Notes: generated by a model not told the origin, from the sequence alone. A DNA stretch of 64,000 nt from Candidatus Woesearchaeota archaeon (GCA_046704725.1 JBJKRI010000006.1:128001-192000); one strand, 5' to 3'; counted from the stretch's first letter, positions 8,167 through 55,148 are shown. Numbers and translations are program-made.

Positions 8167-8489
8167 ACGGCATAGAGCTCCTCGTTCTCCTGATAGCCGC
8201 GATCGGCATCACGGCGGTCGTCGTGCTCGTCTACGTGCAGGACGTGCACAGCTACCAGCTCAGCAGCAACCCGATACCCAAAGAATCGGATGTGCGCGTG
8301 GTCAACGTTATCGCGCAGAACATCAGCAACGGCAGCTTCAAACAGGTACGCATCAGCGTGACGACGACCGGAAAACTCGCACTGAACACGACACTCATCA
8401 CGCTGCAGACGGCGAACGGCTCTGCCGACCTGCAATGGCGCAACGGCACGCTCAAGCGGAACGTGACGACGGGGTTCTACACGCAATGA
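8163..8489 (+). CDS. Pilin/archaellin N-terminal-half-like protein
   Basis: Hydrophobic N-terminal helix, then VRVVNVIA...LALNTTLITLQT resembling archaellin AKVIEVSA...IKLSEVTLTFNT. Confidence 0.55.
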   Translation: MNGIELLVLLIAAIGITAVVVLVYVQDVHSYQLSSNPIPKESDVRVVNVIAQNISNGSFKQVRISVTTTGKLALNTTLITLQTANGSADLQWRNGTLKRNVTTGFYTQ

Positions 8490-10721: not shown

Positions 10722-11999
10722 ATGCAGGACATCAACGCCATCAGGGAGCGCACGGACGAGGTCCGCGCGAGCATCCAGGCGCGGCACAAGGACGTATTGC
10801 CGCTCGTGGACAAGGCATTGAGCCTGGACGCGGAATGGCGACGGGTCAAGGGAGACTTGGACGAGCTGCGGCACGACCGCAACACCGTCTCGGCCGCCAT
10901 CAACACGGCGAAGAAAGAGGGCAAGGACGCGAAAGACCTGCTCAAGAAAGCCAAGGAGATACCCGCCCTGCTCAAGGCGCTCGAGGAGAAAGAGAGCGGC
11001 CTGCGAGAGGAGCTCGACAAGACGCTCAAGGCGATACCCAACTTCCTCGACCCGCAGACACCCATCGGGGAATCGGAGAAGGACAACGTCGTGAAAGAGA
11101 CGCACGGCGGGACGCCCATGCCGGACTTCGAGCCCAAGAGCCACGTGGAGATCTGCGAGGAACTCGGGATAGCGGATTTCGACGCCGCACGGCGCACTAG
11201 CGGCAACGGCTTTTTCTTCCTCAAAGGGGATCTGGCGCTGCTCGACCAGGCGTTGCAACGCTACGCCCTGGACATCATGGTGGGAGAAGGCTTCACGCCT
11301 GTGGTCCCGCCCTACATGATCCGGCGCGACATCGTGGACGGCGTGGTGGACATCGCGTTCTTCGAGGAGAGCATCTACAAGATAGAGGACGAGGACGCGT
11401 ACCTCATCGGGACCAGCGAGCATCCATTGGTGGGCATGCTGACCGGACAGGACGTGGACAGCAGGGAACTGCCCATCACGTTGTGCGGCATCAGCCCGTG
11501 CTTCAGGCGGGAGCTGGGCGCGCACGGCATCGACGAGAAAGGACTGTTCCGCACGCACCAGTTCCAGAAGATCGAGCAGATCGTCGTGTGCCATCCAGAG
11601 CAGAGCGACGAATGGTTCGACAAGCTCCTCGACATCACCAAGAAGATCTTCACCGGACTGGAGCTGCCGTGGCACGAACTGGTCATGTGCTCGGGAGACC
11701 TCGGAGACCTCAAGACGAGGCAGAGCGACCTCGAGGTGTGGAGCCCGCGGCGGCAAGGATATTTCGAGGTGGGAAGCTGCAGCAACCTGACGGACGCGCA
11801 GGCGCGACGGCTCAACATCAGGATCGTGCATCCGGACGGCCAGCGCGAGTATGCGCACACCCTCAATAACACCGCGCTCGCGACGAGCAGGGCCATGGTC
11901 GCCATCCTCGAGAACCACCAGCGAGCGGACGGCACGGTCACCATACCCAAGGTCCTGCGCCCGTATATGGGCAACAAGAGCGTGCTCGGGAAAGCCTAG
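10722..11999 (+). CDS. serS: Serine--tRNA ligase
   Basis: N-terminal coiled coil, YLIGTSE, FRRE..GLFRTHQFQKIEQ, EVGSCSN, HTLNNT. Confidence 0.97.
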   Translation: MQDINAIRERTDEVRASIQARHKDVLPLVDKALSLDAEWRRVKGDLDELRHDRNTVSAAINTAKKEGKDAKDLLKKAKEIPALLKALEEKESGLREELDKTLKAIPNFLDPQTPIGESEKDNVVKETHGGTPMPDFEPKSHVEICEELGIADFDAARRTSGNGFFFLKGDLALLDQALQRYALDIMVGEGFTPVVPPYMIRRDIVDGVVDIAFFEESIYKIEDEDAYLIGTSEHPLVGMLTGQDVDSRELPITLCGISPCFRRELGAHGIDEKGLFRTHQFQKIEQIVVCHPEQSDEWFDKLLDITKKIFTGLELPWHELVMCSGDLGDLKTRQSDLEVWSPRRQGYFEVGSCSNLTDAQARRLNIRIVHPDGQREYAHTLNNTALATSRAMVAILENHQRADGTVTIPKVLRPYMGNKSVLGKA

Positions 12000-12038: not shown

Positions 12039-12662
12039 GTGGCGCGCGTACGATACTACACGTTCTGGCTGGCAGGAATCCTCGTCGTGGTCTTCGGGCT
12101 GCAGCAGATCGTGCCGTACCGCTTCGCCTGGCACGTCGGAGCGATCGAGCCGCAGTTCTTCATCTCGTTGTTCTCGCACGCATCGGTCGCGCACCTCTTG
12201 GGGAACCTGTTCGCCCTGCTCATCTTCGGCGGCATCCTCGAAGGGGTGATCGGGAGCACACGCCTCGCGTGGGTGCTCATCGCCGCCGGCGTCGCGGGAA
12301 ACCTCGCGGGGATCGGGACGTACTATAGCGTGCTCGGAGCCTCAGGAGCGATCTTCGGCGCCATCGGCACGCTCATCGTGCTAAGACCGCTCATGGTGAT
12401 CTGGCTGGACTTCCTGCCGTTGCCGATGATCGTGCTGGGCATCGGCTACGCCGTCGTGGAGACCATCGGAGCCATCGCGAACGCGGACCACACGGGGCAC
12501 CTCGCGCACCTCGCAGGATTCGCTGTGGGCGTCGTCTTCGGGCTCGCCTGGAGAAAGCAGTTCCCCGCGCCGCGACGGCTCAAGAGGTATCGCGACAGGA
12601 CGCGCGACAAGCAGATCGACGCGCAGCTCGACGAGTACGAGAAGCGCTATATGGGGGGTTGA
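12039..12662 (+). CDS. Rhomboid intramembrane serine protease
   Basis: H...HLLGN, GASGA and AHLAG motifs. Confidence 0.9.
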   Translation: MARVRYYTFWLAGILVVVFGLQQIVPYRFAWHVGAIEPQFFISLFSHASVAHLLGNLFALLIFGGILEGVIGSTRLAWVLIAAGVAGNLAGIGTYYSVLGASGAIFGAIGTLIVLRPLMVIWLDFLPLPMIVLGIGYAVVETIGAIANADHTGHLAHLAGFAVGVVFGLAWRKQFPAPRRLKRYRDRTRDKQIDAQLDEYEKRYMGG

Positions 12663-47339: not shown

Positions 47340-48740
47340 CTACGACGAGGAAAAATCCTCCGCAGTCCAACGCGCGTAGAACGCGTCCACGGCCCGTTCC
47401 ATATAGCGCAGTCTCGCCGGACTGCCGCGTTCCGGACTCATGAAACGTTGCAGGGAGTCTTTCGGAACAGCATATATCTCCGGGCGTGAGGATCCCACCA
47501 CCTTCACGCCGACCTCTCTCAAGTACTCCAGCACGTGATGCGTATTCCGACGGACGCCCTCGAATCCATGCATGTCCTTGCTCGTGAACAGCATGAACGG
47601 TTTTCCGGAGATACTGTTGAACAGGCTTCCACGGATCTCCTCACGCATCCGCCCGTATATCGATGATTCATTGTCTAGCGCGAGCGGCAGCTCTTCCTCT
47701 GTCAGGTACAGCACGCCTTGCGGTAGAGCACCCCCAGTAACGAACCCTCCGCGCAAGCGACCTTCTCGTATTCTTGTCTCAAGCGTCGGTTTGCGGAGGG
47801 CTCCCGGAAGGGACCCGAAGTGCTTCGTGGTGACAAGAAGGACTCCTGGCGAGTACCAGCCCGGCAGGCCGTCGAGCGTTGACAGGCCTCCTTCGTACGC
47901 TCCCACAGAAGTCTCTACAGGATGGAGCTTGGGCTGGTGGCCGTTCATGGAGATGTCATCGACATCGATATGCCCTTCCCATCGGTTCACTATGCTGCGC
48001 ATCACGACGGCGTGGAGCTCCCGCACGTTGCCCGGCCACGCCTCATTTTTGAGTCGCTCCACCGCCGCTTCGGTGAAGCCGAGGGTCTTCGCCTCGAAAT
48101 GGCTGCGCGTGCGTGCATGGAGATATGCCACGATCTCCGGAATATCATCCGGTCGCTCGCGCAATGGCGGGACGATGATCTCGTACTGCGCGATGCGATG
48201 GAAGAGGTCCCGACGGAATCCGTCCTCGAACGCGTCGCGCAGCGATGCGTTGGTCGCGGAGAGCACGCGGGTGACGACCTTCTGCGGCAAGGTATCTCCG
48301 ACCGGAATGATAAGGTCCTCCTCAAGGAAGCGCAGGAGCTTTGGTTGGAGCTGGGGCGGCATGTCGCCTATCTCATCGAGGAACAACGTCCCTCCTTCAG
48401 CTGCCTTCACGAAGCCCTTGCTGTCCGAGCTCGCCCCGGTGAACGCGCCCTTGCGGTGCCCGAACAGCGTCGACTCCGCAAGATCCAGAGGGAGGGCCGA
48501 GCAATTCACGGCGACGTACGGATTCATGGCGTTGGGACCGAGATGATGGAGGGCACGGGCGACGAGCTCCTTGCCGACGCCAGTCTCTCCCTGGATGAGC
48601 ACACGGATGTCGAGCTGTGCCAGGCGGCGTATCTGTTCATAGAGCGTCTGCATCGGTGCGGAAGAGCCGATAATCCGAAAATCGGTTCCGGGAATCTGCA
48701 AGGACCGCATGATTCCACGAGTCAATAGTGACGTATTCAA
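47340..48740 (-). CDS. Sigma54-interaction (bEBP-type) AAA+ ATPase with unrecognised C-terminal domain
   Basis: GETGVGKE, ESTLFGHRKGAFTGA, GTLFLDEIG, FRRDLFHR, WPGNVREL. Confidence 0.88.
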   Translation of the reverse strand: MNTSLLTRGIMRSLQIPGTDFRIIGSSAPMQTLYEQIRRLAQLDIRVLIQGETGVGKELVARALHHLGPNAMNPYVAVNCSALPLDLAESTLFGHRKGAFTGASSDSKGFVKAAEGGTLFLDEIGDMPPQLQPKLLRFLEEDLIIPVGDTLPQKVVTRVLSATNASLRDAFEDGFRRDLFHRIAQYEIIVPPLRERPDDIPEIVAYLHARTRSHFEAKTLGFTEAAVERLKNEAWPGNVRELHAVVMRSIVNRWEGHIDVDDISMNGHQPKLHPVETSVGAYEGGLSTLDGLPGWYSPGVLLVTTKHFGSLPGALRKPTLETRIREGRLRGGFVTGGALPQGVLYLTEEELPLALDNESSIYGRMREEIRGSLFNSISGKPFMLFTSKDMHGFEGVRRNTHHVLEYLREVGVKVVGSSRPEIYAVPKDSLQRFMSPERGSPARLRYMERAVDAFYARWTAEDFSSS

Positions 48741-48809
48741 AAAGCTTTTCTTCGAAAAAGCAATGGCGTCCGGCAGCGAAGACGCATAACGCCGGCTTCT
48801 CGCAGTGTC

Positions 48810-49151
48810 CTATCCTTCACGGACGACGCTCTGGCACCAACCATGCTTGCGGAAGAAATCGTAGTGGGTGATCTGCGAATAACCGTTGAAACGGTCCCTG
48901 ACCGCCGTTACTCGCACGACACAGCTTGACGAAGCGTATCCTTCCCGCAGGTCGGGGCGCAGGAACACGGAGAGCAAGACATTCCTCCCGAACGGATCGT
49001 GCATGATGTAATCGCGGAGGATGTCGAAGACCTGCCGGTCCGAGGCGTCCGACGGCAACGAATCCACGAGGGACTCGAGATGTTTCGAGAGGCTTCCCCC
49101 GCCCAGGCAGAAGCGGAAGTCGAGCGACGGTGTCGCGGGTTCCATGGCCAC
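48810..49151 (-). CDS. Hypothetical protein
   Basis: 113-aa ORF; TTTAAG upstream. Confidence 0.45.
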   Translation of the reverse strand: MAMEPATPSLDFRFCLGGGSLSKHLESLVDSLPSDASDRQVFDILRDYIMHDPFGRNVLLSVFLRPDLREGYASSSCVVRVTAVRDRFNGYSQITHYDFFRKHGWCQSVVREG

Positions 49152-49243
49152 GTCCAGGCGAGCGGATACTTAAACGTTGGGCGGACCGGAACACGACAGG
49201 CTGCTCGCACAAACATCTTAAGCACGGGGTCGCTCCCAGCCTC

Positions 49244-49388
49244 ATGCCCAGAAACACGGTCTTCTCGCTCAAAGCGCCACAAGCCGGCGGGCGGGCAGCC
49301 CGAAGCCATCAAGGAGCTGCTGGACGGCTACAAGAAGCAGCAGAAGCAGACCCTGCTCGGCGTGACCGGATCAGGCAAGACATTCTTC
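49244..49388 (+). pseudogene. Frameshifted, truncated copy of the uvrB 5' end
   Basis: Nucleotide match to 53226-53352 with a 2-nt deletion (GCGCC--ACAAG vs GCGCCGTACAAA); similarity ends just after GSGKTF. Confidence 0.85.
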
Positions 49389-49467
49389 TTGACGAAGTCA
49401 AGACTATCTGTCCGAAGGACGCGGGCACTTCCGTTTTTATGCTAAAATAGCTCGGATTCCAAAATTG

Positions 49468-49526
49468 AACTAACAGACGGGTTGAGCGCGTTGTGAAACA
49501 ATACGTGCTAGTCATTTGTTAATGGC
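49468..49526. repeat. attC-like site 1
   Basis: AACTAACAGACGGGTTGAGCGCGTTGTGAAACAATACGTGCTAGTCATTTGTTAATGGC. Confidence 0.8.
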
Positions 49527-49617
49527 TTGTAAGTGATTTTTAGTGCAAGATACTCAATGAAAGCGCAAGAATTATATAATAGAAAAGGATACATTTCTGT
49601 ATCAATAGGTGATGTAA

Positions 49618-49893
49618 ATGTCTGCTATTCTAGATGCGGATCCGAAGCACTGGCCCACGCTAAACACAGTGATCATGGTAGAGCAAACAATAAACAAGCT
49701 CGACGATAGTATCGTCACTGTTCCTCAAATCAAACGCGCGTTGCCACGAAAAGTCAACCATAATACCCTCAAACTCATCCTCAAGTACTTAGAGGAAAGT
49801 AACAAGATCGCCGTAAGCATAGATGGAATTACCTGGATCCACAATCAGAATCAAAAGCTACAACGAGCGATTCAATCAGGTTTAGAGCTGTGA
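49618..49893 (+). CDS. Cassette 1 putative antitoxin (winged-helix-like)
   Basis: 91 aa; GTGA overlap with a RelE-like gene. Confidence 0.6.
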   Translation: MSAILDADPKHWPTLNTVIMVEQTINKLDDSIVTVPQIKRALPRKVNHNTLKLILKYLEESNKIAVSIDGITWIHNQNQKLQRAIQSGLEL

Positions 49894-50243
49894 AACGAGC
49901 ACGCATTATTTTATCTCCAGAAGCAGAAGAGGTCTACAACTATCTGAACAAAGAGGCAAGCAAGTCAAAAACAGAGCGCGCAATACTGAATGCCTTCAAC
50001 AAGAAAAAAGATCTGATCAAGAACAACATCCACTATGGTGAACCGATCGCAAAAAGCAAAATTCCTGAGGCGTACAAGAAATCGTATGGAGTGACGAATT
50101 TATTCTGGGTAGACTTGCCGGATGCGTGGAGGATGCTGTATACGCTGACAAACGATGAATCTCAGATTGAGATTATCGCATTTGTGCTGGATATCTTCGA
50201 TCACAAAGCATACGAGAAAAAAATGGGATACAAGAAGAGCTAA
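49890..50243 (+). CDS. Cassette 1 putative RelE-like toxin
   Basis: Basic protein; NLFWVDLPDAWRMLYTL...DHKAYEKKMGY. Confidence 0.6.
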   Translation: MKRARIILSPEAEEVYNYLNKEASKSKTERAILNAFNKKKDLIKNNIHYGEPIAKSKIPEAYKKSYGVTNLFWVDLPDAWRMLYTLTNDESQIEIIAFVLDIFDHKAYEKKMGYKKS

Positions 50244-50280
50244 TCATTGCCAACCTTGCAACTTCTGAAAATCACGTATT

Positions 50281-50339
50281 GCCACTAACATACGGGTTGA
50301 GCGCGTCCTGATAGGATGCGTGCTAGTCGTTGTTATGGG
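50281..50339. repeat. attC-like site 2
   Basis: GCCACTAACATACGGGTTGAGCGCGTCCTGATAGGATGCGTGCTAGTCGTTGTTATGGG. Confidence 0.85.
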
Positions 50340-50417
50340 TTGCTGCCGATATGCCAGGCGCAGTCTTTGAATTTCGCGAATTGATACTATTATAAAGGAG
50401 GAACATACTGTGTTAAC

Positions 50418-50864
50418 ATGGATTTTGCGTACGAAGGAGATTACACCTACGGTCACACTCGGGGCACCACGAAAGGTTATGTTCGGCTCGGAGAAGCGGG
50501 AAAGCTTGTTGGCATTGTACGAGATGACGGAGGGCAACGAAAGTTCCTCGTCGGCCATCACACAGACAACAGAGTAGAATTCTTCAAAATTCCCGAACTG
50601 CCACTCAGCGTTCGCTCTTTAGGATACAGCGCAAAAGGAACTCCAGACTCCAGCTACGATGCGCAGTGGGGAGTCATCCCCGTATTTTCAGACGTAGCAG
50701 TTTCATGGAGCAATGTACTCTTTGATCTTCGAGATGTGGAATCAGACCGAGACCTTGATTTCTTGGATGCAGTGGACTTGGATGACATTGTTCGCGCGTC
50801 CGAACAAATAGCTGAAGTCAATCCATCCACAGATACTGCATCTTTCCGACTTAATCCACTATAA
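50418..50864 (+). CDS. Cassette 2 hypothetical protein
   Basis: Single ORF between sites 2 and 3; TTATAAA upstream. Confidence 0.65.
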   Translation: MDFAYEGDYTYGHTRGTTKGYVRLGEAGKLVGIVRDDGGQRKFLVGHHTDNRVEFFKIPELPLSVRSLGYSAKGTPDSSYDAQWGVIPVFSDVAVSWSNVLFDLRDVESDRDLDFLDAVDLDDIVRASEQIAEVNPSTDTASFRLNPL

Positions 50865-50936
50865 ACCCCATTTTCAATCGTGTTCGTCATGGAGTCAAAT
50901 GAAGTGCCTGAACTCCTGAAAGCATATCTGCATTTT

Positions 50937-50994
50937 CCCATAACATACGGGTTGAGCGAGTCGCTTGCGATGCGTGCTAGTCATTGTTAATGGC
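50937..50994. repeat. attC-like site 3
   Basis: CCCATAACATACGGGTTGAGCGAGTCGCTTGCGATGCGTGCTAGTCATTGTTAATGGC. Confidence 0.85.
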
Positions 50995-51104
50995 TGTCGT
51001 ATTGAACGTGCGCGGAGGTGCGGAGAGGCCCAAGAACACAATGTTCCCATTAAATAGTAGTTAGTTACCGGTATGTTTATAAGTACTGTTTTCTTTCCTC
51101 CTGT

Positions 51105-51596
51105 ATGTCGCTATTAGAGGAGTTAGTAGCTGAATACGCCCTTGATATCGATGGTGTTATTCTAGAGGATGTGGTACAGAAGCGATACTCCACACTCATC
51201 CAGAACGGATCGATAGACGCCATGACCTCGCTACGCGAAGCAACAGGAATCAACCCTGCAGAGGAGGTGGTACAGAACGGATACTCCACACTCATCCAGA
51301 ACGGATGGATAGACGACATGACCTCGCTACGCGAAGCAACAGGAATCAACCCTGCAGAGGAGGTGGTACAGAACAGATACTCCACACTCATCCAGAACGG
51401 ATGGATAGACGACATGACCTCGCTACGCGAAGCAACAGGAATCAACCCCAAGGTCCCAGAGGATGTGATACAGAACAGATACTCCACACTCATCCAGAAC
51501 GGATGGATAGACGACATGACCTCGCTACGCGAAGCAACAGGAATCATGCCGAATGAAGAGAATGCAAGAGCGTACGTCGCGCATCTCATGGAATAA
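51105..51596 (+). CDS. Cassette 3 tandem-repeat protein
   Basis: Four ~32-aa repeats of EEVVQNRYSTLIQNGWIDDMTSLREATGINP. Confidence 0.7.
   Translation: MSLLEELVAEYALDIDGVILEDVVQKRYSTLIQNGSIDAMTSLREATGINPAEEVVQNGYSTLIQNGWIDDMTSLREATGINPAEEVVQNRYSTLIQNGWIDDMTSLREATGINPKVPEDVIQNRYSTLIQNGWIDDMTSLREATGIMPNEENARAYVAHLME
51165..51546 (+). repeat. Intragenic tandem repeat, four copies of ~96 nt
   Basis: Units start at 51165, 51261, 51357 and 51459. Confidence 0.9.
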
Positions 51597-51630
51597 CTGT
51601 TACCCGCAAAAACGCACGAACACACGTATT

Positions 51631-51689
51631 GCCACTAACATACGGGTTGAGCGCGTCCTGATAGGATGCGTGCTAGTCGTTGTTAGTTG
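51631..51689. repeat. attC-like site 4
   Basis: Core identical to site 2; ends GTTAGTTG. Confidence 0.85.
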
Positions 51690-51765
51690 GTGTTGCTCTC
51701 GATAATTCTTCAATTTTTTCGTGTGAATCAATTTGATTTATATACTGTCTTTGCGTTGAGCCACT

Positions 51766-52203
51766 ATGATTATCCGTACTGCCACAATTGATGATTGTGT
51801 TGCTTGCGAATCCCTTAGTAAGATTCCTGAATTGTTAACTCCAGAAGGTCAGCACGTTGTCAAGGAGTACTTCGAAGTGCTAGTGGATGATGATGAATTG
51901 TTTATTGTAGCGGAAGAGCAACAGCAGATTGTCGGATATGTTGTTGGCGAGCCCATGAAAGCTAATCAAGCATTCATCAGTCTGTTGGTAGTTGATCCAC
52001 ACTTTCGGCGAAGAGGTATTGCGAAACAACTACTTGATGAATTTAGAACCCGCTGCGATACTAAAGGACTGAGATACATTTCATTATTCGCTCCTTCGTT
52101 CAATGAAGCAACGCTTGAATTCTACACAAAAGCAGGTTTCACTCGCGGAGAATCCTACATCTTGTTCAGCGAAAGCAGAATGCCCGATACCGAACAAAGG
52201 TGA
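51766..52203 (+). CDS. Cassette 4 GNAT acetyltransferase
   Basis: IRTAT.DD, VDPHFRRRGIAKQL, N.A..FY.K.GF. Confidence 0.88.
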   Translation: MIIRTATIDDCVACESLSKIPELLTPEGQHVVKEYFEVLVDDDELFIVAEEQQQIVGYVVGEPMKANQAFISLLVVDPHFRRRGIAKQLLDEFRTRCDTKGLRYISLFAPSFNEATLEFYTKAGFTRGESYILFSESRMPDTEQR

Positions 52204-52236
52204 AGGTCTTTGAGAGGTTTTCTGAAAGCACAATGA

Positions 52237-52312
52237 CAACTAACATACGTTATGGCGGACGCTTTGCGCCCGCGAACCATGGATGTTAGGCCTAACCGGA
52301 GACATTCCGGTT
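52237..52312. repeat. Divergent attC-like site 5 plus candidate attI
   Basis: CAACTAACAT...ATGTTAGG hairpin with similar spacing, then GTTAGG|CCTAAC and AACCGGA-GACAT-TCCGGTT. Confidence 0.6.
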
Positions 52313-52355
52313 TTATCCACAATGAACTATTGAAGTTTGTTTCGAGCGGTGGAGC

Positions 52356-53195
52356 ATGGTTACAGAGGACGTCGAGCGCCGTCTGCTTAAGCAACTGGAG
52401 GATATCTGCGCTCTCAAGGGCCTAAGCGGCCAGACTGTCCGTGCGTACTCCTCAGTCCTGGCTCAGTATTTTGCGTATCTTCGACACAAGGAGACAAAAC
52501 TCGGCCATGAAAGTGTGAAAGACTACTTGCTAACGCGTAAGGTCAACCCGAATTCGTTGCGCCTGCACCGCGCGGCGCTGCAGTTCCTCTTCACCCACAT
52601 CCTGGACAGCCCGTTCTCCTTCAATCAGATACCGATCAAGAAAAGGCCAAAACAGCTCCCCAAGGCGCTCAGCAGGCAAGCGGTCAAGACGATGATCGAC
52701 TCGACAGAGAACCCCAAGCACAAGCTCATCGTGCAACTGCTCTATTCCTGCGGCCTCCGACTGTCGGAACTGGTCAATCTCCGACGGGACGACATCGATT
52801 TCGACCGCGGACTGGTCCATGTCAGGAAGGGCAAAGGCAGCAAGGATCGCTACACCACGATCTCGCAGTCCCTGCAGTCAGCTCTCCTCCGATACTACGC
52901 CACGAACACCTTCGCCACCCCCTATATCCTCGAAGGAAGGAATGGCAAGTACTCGAAGAAATCGGTGCAGAAGGTCGTCGAGCAGGCAGGCAAGCGCGCG
53001 GCCGTTAAAGCCACGCCCCACACGCTGCGCCACTCGTTCGCCACACACCTCTTGGAGGCGGGCGTCTCTTTACGCCATATCCAGCAGCTCCTCGGCCACG
53101 CGAGCCTTGACACGACCCAGGTCTACACCCACATCGCGAACAGCGACATCGCCGCGATCCCAAATCCATTGGACCGTCTCGAACGCAACGCCTAA
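52356..53195 (+). CDS. Tyrosine recombinase/integrase (XerD/IntI-like)
   Basis: SAM-like N-terminus; YSCGLRLSE, KGKGSKDR, HTLRHSFATH, LLGH..L.TTQVY. Confidence 0.93.
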   Translation: MVTEDVERRLLKQLEDICALKGLSGQTVRAYSSVLAQYFAYLRHKETKLGHESVKDYLLTRKVNPNSLRLHRAALQFLFTHILDSPFSFNQIPIKKRPKQLPKALSRQAVKTMIDSTENPKHKLIVQLLYSCGLRLSELVNLRRDDIDFDRGLVHVRKGKGSKDRYTTISQSLQSALLRYYATNTFATPYILEGRNGKYSKKSVQKVVEQAGKRAAVKATPHTLRHSFATHLLEAGVSLRHIQQLLGHASLDTTQVYTHIANSDIAAIPNPLDRLERNA

Positions 53196-53219
53196 AACCC
53201 GCGCCCCATTCTCACCCAC

Positions 53220-55148
53220 ATGCCATTCTCGCTCAAAGCGCCGTACAAACCGGCGGGCGGACAGCCCGAAGCCATCAAGGAGCTGCTGGAGGGCTACAAG
53301 AAGCAGGAGAAGCAGACCCTGCTCGGGGTGACCGGCAGCGGCAAGACCTTCCTGATGGCGAACGTCATCCAGGCGCTGGGCAAGAAGACATTGGTGCTCG
53401 CGCACAACAAGACGCTCGCCGCGCAACTGTGGAGCGAACTGCGCGAACTGTTCCCCGAAAACGCCGTGGAGTACTTCGTGAGCTACTACGACTATTACCA
53501 GCCGGAATCCTACCTGCCGCAGACGGACACCTATATCGAGAAGGACAGCAGCAAGAACGACGTGATCGACGCGTTGCGCTTGCGCGCGACGGCCAACCTC
53601 TTGTCGCGCGACGACGTCATCGTCGTGGCGTCCGTGTCGTGCATCTACGGCTTGGGGGACCCGGAGGACTGGGAGGAACTGAGCCTGCATATCGAGAGAG
53701 GAGAGAGCATGAATAGGCAAGGGCTCATCAAGGGCCTTGTGGACATGCAGTACGAGCGAAACGACACGCAGCCCCAGCGCGGACAGTTCCGCGTGACAGG
53801 CGACACGGTCGAGGTCGTGCCGGGATACCAGGACGAGCACGTGCGCATCGAATTGTTCGGCGACGAGGTCGAACGCATCAGCATCAGGCACCACGTCACG
53901 GGAGAGGAGATCGAGCGCGCCGAGCGCATCGTCTTGTTCCCGGCAAAGCATTTCGTGACGACAGAGGAGAAGCAAGAGCGCGCCATCGCGGGCATCAAGG
54001 AGGAGCTGGAGGGGTACTTGCCCACGCTCGGACCGCTCGAGCACGAGCGCCTGGAGCGGCGCACGAGGTTCGACCTGGAGATGATCGAGGAACTGGGGTA
54101 CTGCAACGGCATCGAGAACTACAGCAGGCACTTCTCCGGGCGCAAGGAAGGGCAGCCGCCGCACACCCTCTTGGACTTCTTCGGGAAGGACTGGCTGCTC
54201 ATCGTGGACGAGAGCCACCAGACATTGCCGCAGGTGCACGCCATGGCGCACGGCGACCGCAGCCGCAAGGAGCCGCTCGTGGAGTACGGCTTCCGGCTGC
54301 CCAGCGCTTTCGACAACCGGCCGTTGACCTTCGAGGAGTTCGAGGGCCGCATGCCGACAACAATGTTCGTCTCCGCGACGCCGGGCGAGTACGAGACCAA
54401 GACGAGCGGCAACCTCGTGGAATGCGTCATCCGGCCGACAGGGCTCTTGGACCCCCACATCACCGTCAAGCCCACGAAAGGGCAGATAGACGACCTCATC
54501 AGCGAGGTGCACAAGACCGTCGAGGACGGGAACAAGGTCTTGGTGACCACGCTCACCAAGAAGATGTCGGAGGATCTGACGAACTACCTCGCGCGGCGCG
54601 ACATCCGGGTGCGCTACCTGCACAGCGAGATCGAGACGCTCGAACGCACGGAGCTCATCCGGCAATTGCGGGCGGACGAGATCGACTGCATCGTCGGCAT
54701 CAACCTGTTACGGGAAGGGCTCGACATCCCCGAAGTGTCGTTGGTGGCAATCCTGGATGCGGACAAGGAAGGCTTCCTGCGCAACGAACGGTCTCTCTTG
54801 CAGACCATCGGCCGGGCCTCGCGCAACAAGGACGGGCGCGTCATCATGTACGCGGACAAGACGACGGACTCGATGCGGCGCGCCATCACCATAACGCACG
54901 AGCGCCGTGCATTGCAGGAGAAGTACAACACAGAGCACGGCATCACGCCCAAGACCATCGTCAAGGCGGTGCCCGAGCAGCGCGTGGCCATGAAGGACAC
55001 CAAGCACATCCCAGACGCTGATGTGGAGAAGACGATCGAATCCTTGCGCGAGGAGATGGCCGCGGCGGCCGAGCAGTTGAACTTCGAGCTCGCCATCGAG
55101 ATACGCGACCGCATCAAGGAACTGGAGAAACGGCTGGAGAAGCGATAG
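53220..55148 (+). CDS. uvrB: Excinuclease ABC subunit B
   Basis: GVTGSGKT, FVSYYDYYQPE, DESH, GINLLREGLD, C-terminal UVR domain. Confidence 0.97.
   Translation: MPFSLKAPYKPAGGQPEAIKELLEGYKKQEKQTLLGVTGSGKTFLMANVIQALGKKTLVLAHNKTLAAQLWSELRELFPENAVEYFVSYYDYYQPESYLPQTDTYIEKDSSKNDVIDALRLRATANLLSRDDVIVVASVSCIYGLGDPEDWEELSLHIERGESMNRQGLIKGLVDMQYERNDTQPQRGQFRVTGDTVEVVPGYQDEHVRIELFGDEVERISIRHHVTGEEIERAERIVLFPAKHFVTTEEKQERAIAGIKEELEGYLPTLGPLEHERLERRTRFDLEMIEELGYCNGIENYSRHFSGRKEGQPPHTLLDFFGKDWLLIVDESHQTLPQVHAMAHGDRSRKEPLVEYGFRLPSAFDNRPLTFEEFEGRMPTTMFVSATPGEYETKTSGNLVECVIRPTGLLDPHITVKPTKGQIDDLISEVHKTVEDGNKVLVTTLTKKMSEDLTNYLARRDIRVRYLHSEIETLERTELIRQLRADEIDCIVGINLLREGLDIPEVSLVAILDADKEGFLRNERSLLQTIGRASRNKDGRVIMYADKTTDSMRRAITITHERRALQEKYNTEHGITPKTIVKAVPEQRVAMKDTKHIPDADVEKTIESLREEMAAAAEQLNFELAIEIRDRIKELEKRLEKR

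Follow-up and report, generated by a model that had tools for sequence, protein, structure and literature searches.

A candidate integron-like array of hairpin sites beside a XerA-like recombinase in a woesearchaeotal genome and its relatives

The present analysis concerns a stretch of 64,000 nucleotides (nt) from Candidatus Woesearchaeota archaeon (GCA_046704725.1, JBJKRI010000006.1:128001-192000), hereafter the window, in which positions are counted from the first letter; the genome holding it is designated G000 (1.18 Mb, 99.7% complete). Five hairpin sites that begin with TAAC and end with GTTA are spaced along 49464-52288 of the window and set apart four AT-richer cassettes, and a tyrosine recombinase gene lies next to them at 52356-53195. 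The uvrB 5' end is directly repeated on both sides of the island formed by these features. An earlier reading, made from the sequence alone (the sequence-only reading), had described the sites, cassettes and recombinase as an integron-like array in a DPANN-like archaeon, that is, a gene-capture platform with its own family of sites. The features of the island, including the open reading frames (ORFs) with their lengths in amino acids (aa), are as follows; site coordinates run from a conserved ATTG extension through GTTA.

49239-49396, + strand: left direct repeat; it duplicates the region upstream of uvrB together with ~50 initial codons of the gene, displaced and frameshifted
49464-49521, + strand: s1, the array site most distant from the integrase; ATTG-N4-TAAC...GTTA hairpin, apex TTGT-GAA-ACAA
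49618-49893, + strand: cassette ORF of 91 aa, putative antitoxin; its stop overlaps the start of the next ORF by 4 nt; no Pfam family above cut-off
49890-50243, + strand: cassette ORF of 117 aa, RelE/ParE-like toxin as a lead only; no Pfam match
50278-50335, + strand: s2, apex TCCT-GAT-AGGA; hairpin of -13.5 kcal/mol (z -3.9)
50418-50864, + strand: cassette ORF of 148 aa, no known family
50932-50989, + strand: s3, apex TCGC-TT-GCGA
51105-51596, + strand: cassette ORF of 163 aa with four 96-nt (32-aa) tandem repeats (repeat family D1); Pfam scraps below threshold only
51628-51685, + strand: s4, identical to s2; hairpin of -15.2 kcal/mol (z -4.7)
51766-52203, + strand: cassette ORF of 145 aa, GNAT acetyltransferase (PF00583, 64 bits), under every equivalog cut-off
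52232-52288, + strand: s5, of the integrase-proximal (candidate attI-like) class; GC-rich ATTG-N4-TAACA-N-CTATTA-hairpin (z -2.2)
52297-52309, no strand assigned: palindrome CGGAGACATTCCG, 59 nt ahead of the integrase start, candidate operator
52356-53195, + strand: array-linked XerA-like tyrosine recombinase of 279 aa, transcribed away from the array
53203-53362, + strand: right direct repeat; uvrB is intact here (gene 53220-55148), and the repeat covers its 5' end and the region upstream of it

All five TAAC/GTTA-ended sites of the sequence-only reading were present. Their spacing had been given as 44-47 nt and was measured here as 48-51 nt from TAAC to GTTA, or 40-43 nt between the cores. 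Two conserved 29-nt arms (repeat families D4 and D5 in the repeat search) were common to s1-s4, and s5 was divergent. Sites s2 and s4 agreed letter for letter from 13 nt 5' of TAAC through GTTA and diverged immediately beyond it. The apical stems of s1, s2 and s3 had been read correctly, and pairing in these stems was kept across s1-s4: 95% of cells were paired and both sides changed in 3 of 20 pairs, values that were reached by 9-30 of 500 shuffles in this small sample. When the + strand was folded as single-stranded DNA, s2 and s4 formed the full hairpin and s5 also formed a hairpin. The sites appeared to be a local feature of the genome. No copy of the 19-nt arm motifs could be found outside the island in the 1.18-Mb genome at up to three mismatches, and the two matches with four mismatches were unrelated sequence; repeats scattered over the genome independently of the integrase, which the sequence-only reading had named among the conditions that would refute its proposal, were thus not seen in G000. 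The pattern TAAC-N36-60-GTTA occurred 20 times on the + strand of the genome, five of these in the island, and a strict stem scan recovered s2 and s4 and, apart from these, a single unrelated hairpin of 44 nt on contig C3. The latter (70051-70094), a lone TAAC...GTTA hairpin with 11 of 14 arm pairs, lies in GC-rich surroundings remote from the island and is probably due to chance. A search of 48500-53500 against Rfam at E values up to 10 gave two chance-level matches, none of them relevant. The island therefore shows what is expected of attC-type sites: two or more imperfect palindromes, separated by less than 4 kb and each with an AAC and a GTT core, whose fold is conserved while the sequence varies.

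The recombinase carries the Pfam domains Phage_integrase (PF00589, 131.9 bits) and SAM_4. Its best NCBIfam match was archaeal XerA (NF040815), at 219.2 bits against a cut-off of 220; it did not qualify as the housekeeping XerA, that is, as the genome's Xer ortholog above this cut-off. The integron-integrase model TIGR02249 (integrase_gron) aligned in two stretches and, at 190 bits, fell short of its cut-off of 265. Among solved structures, the best relative was Pyrococcus XerA (4a8e, E 2.7e-49), aligned in one stretch. The second-best match was IntI4 of Vibrio (2a3v), for which the alignment was split (query 177-203, chain 177-246) and skipped ~43 IntI4 residues at the position of the IntI-specific domain. 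This domain (intI_Cterm, near patch III) was absent from the integrase. In the available part of its description, IntegronFinder defines IntI by PF00589 plus intI_Cterm, and the integrase is therefore not an IntI by this definition. G000 carries four tyrosine recombinase genes; one of them, located on contig C4, shares 41% identity with the island integrase. We searched 151 genomes of the order with each of these two proteins and obtained two sets of 30 loci. Of these 60 loci, 7 were excluded (three because of internal stops, three as duplicates and one as a fragment), and the tree built from the other 53 proteins resolved two clades with 100/98 support. Clade A comprised 22 rows, including the island integrase and its ortholog in G001, a genome of the same genus, and the sister paralog clade comprised 31 rows, including the C4 gene. 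It should be noted that these 151 genomes, which underlie all order-wide tallies below, include the unpublished G117 and G137, on which no specific claim is built. Both XerA-like genes occurred together in G000, G001, G111, G012, G047, G035, G023 and G151. The catalytic residues R, K, HxxR, H and Y were invariant across the 22 members of clade A. No clade-specific insertion could be found between the two clades; they were told apart by point motifs, notably a conserved GR.GKY stretch at the position of the IntI extra domain. Judged from its sequence, the island integrase is a dedicated XerA paralog and not an IntI.

By using a loose form of the G000 left-arm motif (TAACAT..GG.TT.AG), related sites could be identified upstream of clade A integrases in other genomes. 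These sites were three-way-junction hairpins of 76-160 nt, built of ATTG-N4-TAACAT, a bulge of 1-2 nt, the stem GCGATTAAGAG/CTCTTAATCGC, two inner hairpins joined by AATTTGGG, and a final TGTTA. The sites of G000 look like a reduced form of this longer family with one short apical hairpin. A covariance model, which the sequence-only reading had suggested as a check, was built from seven of the longer homologous sites (model R1) and matched in 64 of the 151 genomes, often in arrays of 3-6 sites and upstream of the integrase. No match was obtained in 108 kb around 30 paralog genes, nor in 918 kb of sequence surrounding 80 Xer/IntI-like genes, most of them bacterial; these 80 genes were taken from a profile search of genome contigs with the clade A alignment, which returned at least 600 generic Xer/IntI-like matches. 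In an alignment of 33 R1 matches, which was fitted to the model (favouring structure) and in which a few rows show the opposite strand of sites already present, 94% of cells were paired compared with 74% in shuffles, both sides changed in 21 of 28 pairs, and none of 500 shuffles reached these pairing and covariation values. Site copies within the same genome differed by compensatory changes. Small hairpins with CTGCAAG or GTGCAAC loops were also observed, both inside the three-way junction and just downstream of sites (locus L051, about 8230-8260, 11500-11560 and 12390-12420), with a further one in L050 (13300-13320).

The position of the sites relative to the two integrase clades was then compared. 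Of the 22 clade A rows, 10 had an upstream site, and in the other 12 there was only the end of the contig, within 1.4 kb upstream; the corresponding numbers among the 31 paralog rows were 0 and 1. Overall, 17 of 22 clade A loci were cut upstream vs 1 of 31 paralog loci. Of the sites that share a contig with an integrase match, 47 out of 51, in 23 genomes, were located upstream of it on the same strand, compared with about one-fourth expected by chance; this tally was made by hand among the matches listed, and 41 further integrase matches were left uncounted. The four exceptions were found in G040 (one), G099 (one) and G140 (two). Arrays of 3-6 sites were present in G012, G071, G023, G079, G118 and G141. 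Many near-identical copies scattered in either orientation, as would be typical of miniature inverted-repeat transposable elements (MITEs) or repetitive extragenic palindromes (REPs), were not seen. The recurrence of the same integrase clade with homologous hairpin arrays across the order, the strong base-pair covariation and the tight link of position and strand to the integrase all agree with the gene-capture platform, with its own family of sites, that had been proposed. R1-type sites were also observed singly or in small clusters away from any detected integrase, in the manner of CALINs (see below), on G034 contigs C1 (122007) and C2 (34560 and 35338), on G030 contig C37 and on several contigs of G106; G030 and G106 had such sites though they gave no integrase match.

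The fifth site had originally been counted as equal to the others. Our data instead placed s5 in a separate class, a distinct element upstream of clade A integrases in other genomes as well, which consists of ATTG-N4-TAACA-N-CTATTA followed by a simple co-varying hairpin and lies 41-202 nt from the predicted integrase start. A loose regular expression for this element matched 18 of 22 clade A upstream regions vs 5 of 31 paralog regions, and two more copies were interrupted by contig starts. From its sequence and placement, the s5 class is a candidate attI-like site. The palindrome CGGA-N5-TYCG was found 59-61 nt before the integrase start at 9 of 22 clade A loci vs none of 31 paralog loci (besides G000, in L021, L022, L024, L027, L030, L036, L038 and L039), and it is a candidate operator controlling the integrase. 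In G001, G094, G043 and G025, the contig bearing the proximal site started within 2 nt of TAAC, and the array-site contig C98 of G011 began exactly at TAAC. The proximal site is single-copy, and therefore its repetition is not the cause of the contig breaks there. The breaks can be explained if the populations sampled vary in the sequence that adjoins TAAC on its left, and a crossover at or beside TAA/C (cf. G/TT in integrons) is inferred. The identity of s2 and s4 and the distance of 34-43 nt between RelE-like stop codons and sites (see below) are compatible with either polarity of crossover, at the left or the right core.

With respect to the cassettes, GC content was 0.40-0.52 within the island and 0.60-0.65 in the flanks, in line with the claim that the cassettes are AT-richer. 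Pfam recognized both the GNAT protein and the tyrosine recombinase, and the repeat protein was borne out by its four tandem repeats. The toxin-antitoxin (TA)-like pair stood only in part: there are two overlapping small ORFs, and the Atlas clusters nearest to the 117-aa ORF were annotated as 'putative RelE toxin' and 'plasmid stabilization' (0.96-0.98), a language-model look-up that serves as a lead only, whereas Pfam returned nothing for the pair. A homolog of the 91-aa ORF adjoins the integrase of G111. Homologs of the 117-aa RelE-like family were present in 87 of the 151 genomes, with up to five copies per genome, and their identity between different families of the order (60-69%) exceeded that of the integrase. 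In three genomes (G000, G111 and G125), the RelE-like pair was followed by a site 34-43 nt beyond the stop codon. The site in G125 (L215, 1420-1459, - strand), 43 nt past the closest RelE-like homolog (69% identity), is a minimal one of 25 nt, ATTGAACA-TAACAT-CGGAATTCC-TGTTAT; it is solitary, and no other was seen upstream of it. The cargo of the other arrays was varied and included an AbiEii-like ATPase, SurE, two TrmB regulators, a prenyltransferase, DUF5680, a TPR protein, LemA, GlpM, an SbcCD-like pair, SHOCT and several proteins without a family. The cassette genes of G000 are co-oriented and read toward the integrase, and AT-rich TATA-like motifs appear to precede each of them. Thus, the arrangement expected of integrons, with co-oriented cassettes served by a common promoter at the integrase end, was not what we found.

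To compare the array with known systems, we examined the class 1 integron of plasmid NZ_CP080262.1, oriented so that intI1 points the same way as the archaeal integrase. Several features are shared: a tyrosine recombinase transcribed away from the adjoining array; short array genes that are for the most part unrelated to one another; imperfect palindromes, with cores of AAC and GTT, that separate these genes; a distinct site adjoining the integrase; and TA-like and GNAT cargo. The sites follow the R-box/spacer/L-box plan of attC aadA1 and attC dfrA1. The attC of aadA1 reads TCTAAC-GCTTGA-GTTAAGC...GCTTGAA-CGAAT-TGTTAGA and the archaeal consensus TATAAC-ATCGCGA-TTAAGAG...CTCTTAA-TCGC-TGTTAT, a closer agreement with real class 1 sites than the 'only loosely' fitting consensus of the sequence-only reading had implied. 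On the other hand, the IntI-specific domain is missing from the archaeal integrase, the proximal site, too, forms a hairpin, the array sites are mostly three-way junctions with a conserved junction sequence, and the cassette genes read toward the integrase in G000 and in both orientations in other arrays. A survey of archaeal metagenome-assembled genomes (Ghaly et al., 2022, PMC9668308) describes TA and GNAT genes as typical cassette cargo and reports only six IntIs, all with the IntI domain, as well as 539 attCs, most of which belong to CALINs. CALINs are defined, in the portion of the source at hand, as attC clusters without an integron integrase (Cury et al., 2016, PMC4889954). Arrays such as the present ones would be filed there if the IntegronFinder attC model detects their sites, since the integrase fails the intI_Cterm test; they differ from CALINs in that an integrase of one specific clade adjoins them. 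The Nanoarchaeota CALINs of the 2022 survey may include arrays of the present family. The archaeal XerA/dif system (4a8e, 5hxy) is closest in sequence and length and has the same catalytic residues, and the TAACAT core may resemble a Xer-binding arm. The array integrase differs from XerA in that it belongs to a paralog clade of its own, occurs alongside a second XerA-like gene and is tied to multi-copy hairpin sites, not to a single duplex site. In Acinetobacter plasmid dif modules and Xer-exploiting elements, 28-bp duplex dif-like sites are used by the housekeeping XerC/D of the host. These likewise place gene modules between Xer-type sites with a Xer-family recombinase as the mover, whereas hairpins of 48-160 nt and a dedicated paralog are found here. 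A dif-like duplex (about 28 bp, with two 11-nt arms and a spacer of 6-8 nt) could not be recognized, the core arms being 40-140 nt apart. Our literature searches found no report of a XerA-type integrase with arrays of hairpin sites; in the part of the review by Badel (2021) available, integrons are mentioned only in passing, and a term search of a 2026 preprint with 208 complete Nanobdellota genomes, in the text accessible, gave no match.

Taken together, we consider it probable that the island is an integron-like gene-capture array with a dedicated XerA-paralog recombinase. In such a system, the integrase would recognize the imperfect palindromic sites with TAAC and GTTA cores. Because the two core arms lie 40-140 nt apart, the sites would have to fold out of the duplex, presumably as single strands in vivo, with one strand being used; strand exchange would take place at or beside the TAAC core. 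Genes between two array sites might be excised as circles and re-inserted at the integrase-proximal site (s5 here), which would have the role of attI. The cassettes apparently have their own promoters; since those of other genomes lie in either orientation, a common cassette promoter would not be needed.

Several observations weigh against this interpretation. The homology of the G000 sites to the order-wide family is marginal: with default filters, R1 gave no match to them in the window, and without filters it matched the outer stem only (10.8 and 11.6 bits, E about 1), so that their membership would rest on a 13-of-15 motif match and arm similarity. In addition, the minimum-energy folds of s1 (z -1.65) and s3 (z -0.29) were other than the full hairpin. 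The bulge of the archaeal + strand is on the 5' arm, whereas the class 1 attCs folded here have their bulges on the 3' arm of the equivalent strand; the strand choice of integrons is not transferable. Most toxin homologs had no adjoining site, which was present at 1 of 24 loci (L215-L238), part of the cargo is housekeeping-like (SurE, the prenyltransferase and the SbcCD-like pair), ORFs occupy both strands in the arrays of other genomes, the 47 of 51 co-contig sites were counted by hand, and the contig breaks could have other causes. The only sequencing run with the organism (X1, a mangrove metagenome, 0.11 of words) yielded short, low-depth contigs. Circular junctions were not seen, nor did the same strain yield an empty or alternative array. 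A search of metagenome contigs with the integrase gave no relative above 42% identity, and a strain comparison was therefore not possible. Finally, the uvrB duplication could mean that the island as a whole is one integrative element.

This last alternative would hold that a single mobile element was inserted by its integrase at the 5' end of uvrB and that the internal repeats arose from successive tandem insertions of small elements at its own attachment site, comparable to Xer-exploiting elements or dif-module arrays; the island would then be no dedicated cassette system. The uvrB repeats, which were absent from the sequence-only reading, consist of D3 (118 nt, 88%) and D7 (40 nt, 75%), 158 nt in total, and enclose the island exactly. 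Their offsets differ by 2 nt, which indicates that the left copy was frameshifted by a 2-nt indel; this copy is 80% identical to uvrB residues 8-48. Because the uvrB 5' end is duplicated on either side of the whole unit, the unit was brought in or rearranged at this place as a single block, and the repeat could stem from an integrated circle that bore the uvrB 5' end of a relative. As in integrative elements generally, the integrase is located at one edge and direct repeats of the end of the target gene flank the unit, whose GC content is unlike that of its surroundings. The integrase of G001 is also upstream of uvrB, and none was found within 7-9 kb of uvrB in G003 and G004; synteny upstream of uvrB is not kept in these two genomes, and therefore no empty site could be defined. 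A Bro-N domain gene (282 aa; L016, 4184-5032, - strand) was observed between integrase and uvrB in G001. Skips of 4 kb between the two uvrB copies in the sequencing-run contigs, considered as empty sites, were rejected as the uvrB of other organisms (replaced letters, less than 95% likeness). On the other side, no second uvrB fragment was present in G001, and arrays of other genomes were not found beside uvrB, which occurred at only the G001, G003, G004 and G006 loci among 16 examined. Moreover, the site family and the proximal site are kept across many families of the order with constant polarity toward the integrase, and the core arms are too distant for a duplex dif-like core site. A single integrative element accounts for the location of the island and not for the function of its internal sites, and is compatible with a gene-capture array; as an explanation in its own right, we regard it as unlikely.

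Two other explanations fared worse. The hairpins might be selfish or regulatory palindromic repeats (MITE/REP-like elements, terminators or small RNAs) that gather in variable regions without being acted upon by the recombinase. They are indeed imperfect, intergenic palindromes, some of them lie far from any detected integrase (in G034 C1 and C2, G030 and G106), ordinary-looking genes are among the cargo, and the conserved junction AATTTGGG and the CTGCAAG loop might be signals at the protein or RNA level. Such repeats would hardly be expected to lie upstream of the integrase and on its strand in the proportion counted by hand above, to be missing near the 30 paralog genes, to have arm motifs confined to the island in G000 or to include a distinct class at a fixed place before the integrase. 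In addition, copies within a genome differ by compensatory changes and are not near-identical transposed copies, and there is no transposase in the island. We therefore find this explanation quite improbable. Least credible of all, and in our judgment very improbable, is a canonical integron of the type already reported in archaea, with IntI and standard attC, possibly of bacterial origin. The integrase_gron score, the second-best structural match to IntI4, the class 1-like box plan and the TA and GNAT cargo (typical according to the part of Ghaly et al., 2022, PMC9668308 available) point in its direction. However, the score was under the cut-off and split in two stretches, the IntI4 alignment omits the residues of the IntI-specific domain, and in the tree the sister group of the clade is the XerA-like paralog native to the order; the few archaeal IntIs of the same survey, in the part available, all carry the IntI domain.

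If the island is an integron-like gene-capture array, it may represent an integron lineage that is native to archaea with small genomes (DPANN-type). In this lineage, a XerA paralog would recombine folded hairpins without the IntI domain that is treated as necessary in bacterial work, with its own attC-like and hairpin attI-like families and self-expressed cassettes. The lineage would be either the Xer-like precursor state of integrons or a case of the same strategy invented independently; we see the chances of this broader proposal as evenly balanced. Integrons are defined by IntI, and the IntI extra domain is held to be necessary for recombining folded attC. If a plain XerA-type enzyme serves an archaeal system that is widespread and has the same architecture, this would directly test the need for this domain, would inform the origin of integrons from Xer recombinases and would supply a mechanism of gene turnover for very small archaeal genomes. 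It would also mean that surveys keyed to the IntI domain undercount such systems, whose arrays are filed as integrase-less clusters; many of the 'integrase-less' attC clusters of archaea could be accounted for by a native lineage. The assembly breaks just upstream of the clade A integrase in these genomes would be explained as well.

The organism is archaeal by its small and large subunit rRNA, and the named relatives of its proteins are records of Woesearchaeota, Pacearchaeota, Undinarchaeales and Nanobdellota; of the original description as a DPANN-like archaeon, the archaeal part is thus secured and the DPANN-like part is plausible only. Two further sequencing runs (X2 and X3) gave no coverage of the island. 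A low-depth contig of 182 nt from run X1, corresponding to 50970-51120 of the window, carries the right arm of s3 and the repeat-protein cassette with a different, still-paired apex. Outside the island, the window encodes at 47340-48740 (- strand) a protein of 466 aa with a sigma-54 interaction domain (PF00158, 198.9 bits), whose GAFTGA-type motif is readable in the DNA. A protein of this kind is unusual in an archaeal genome and may have been acquired by transfer from bacteria.

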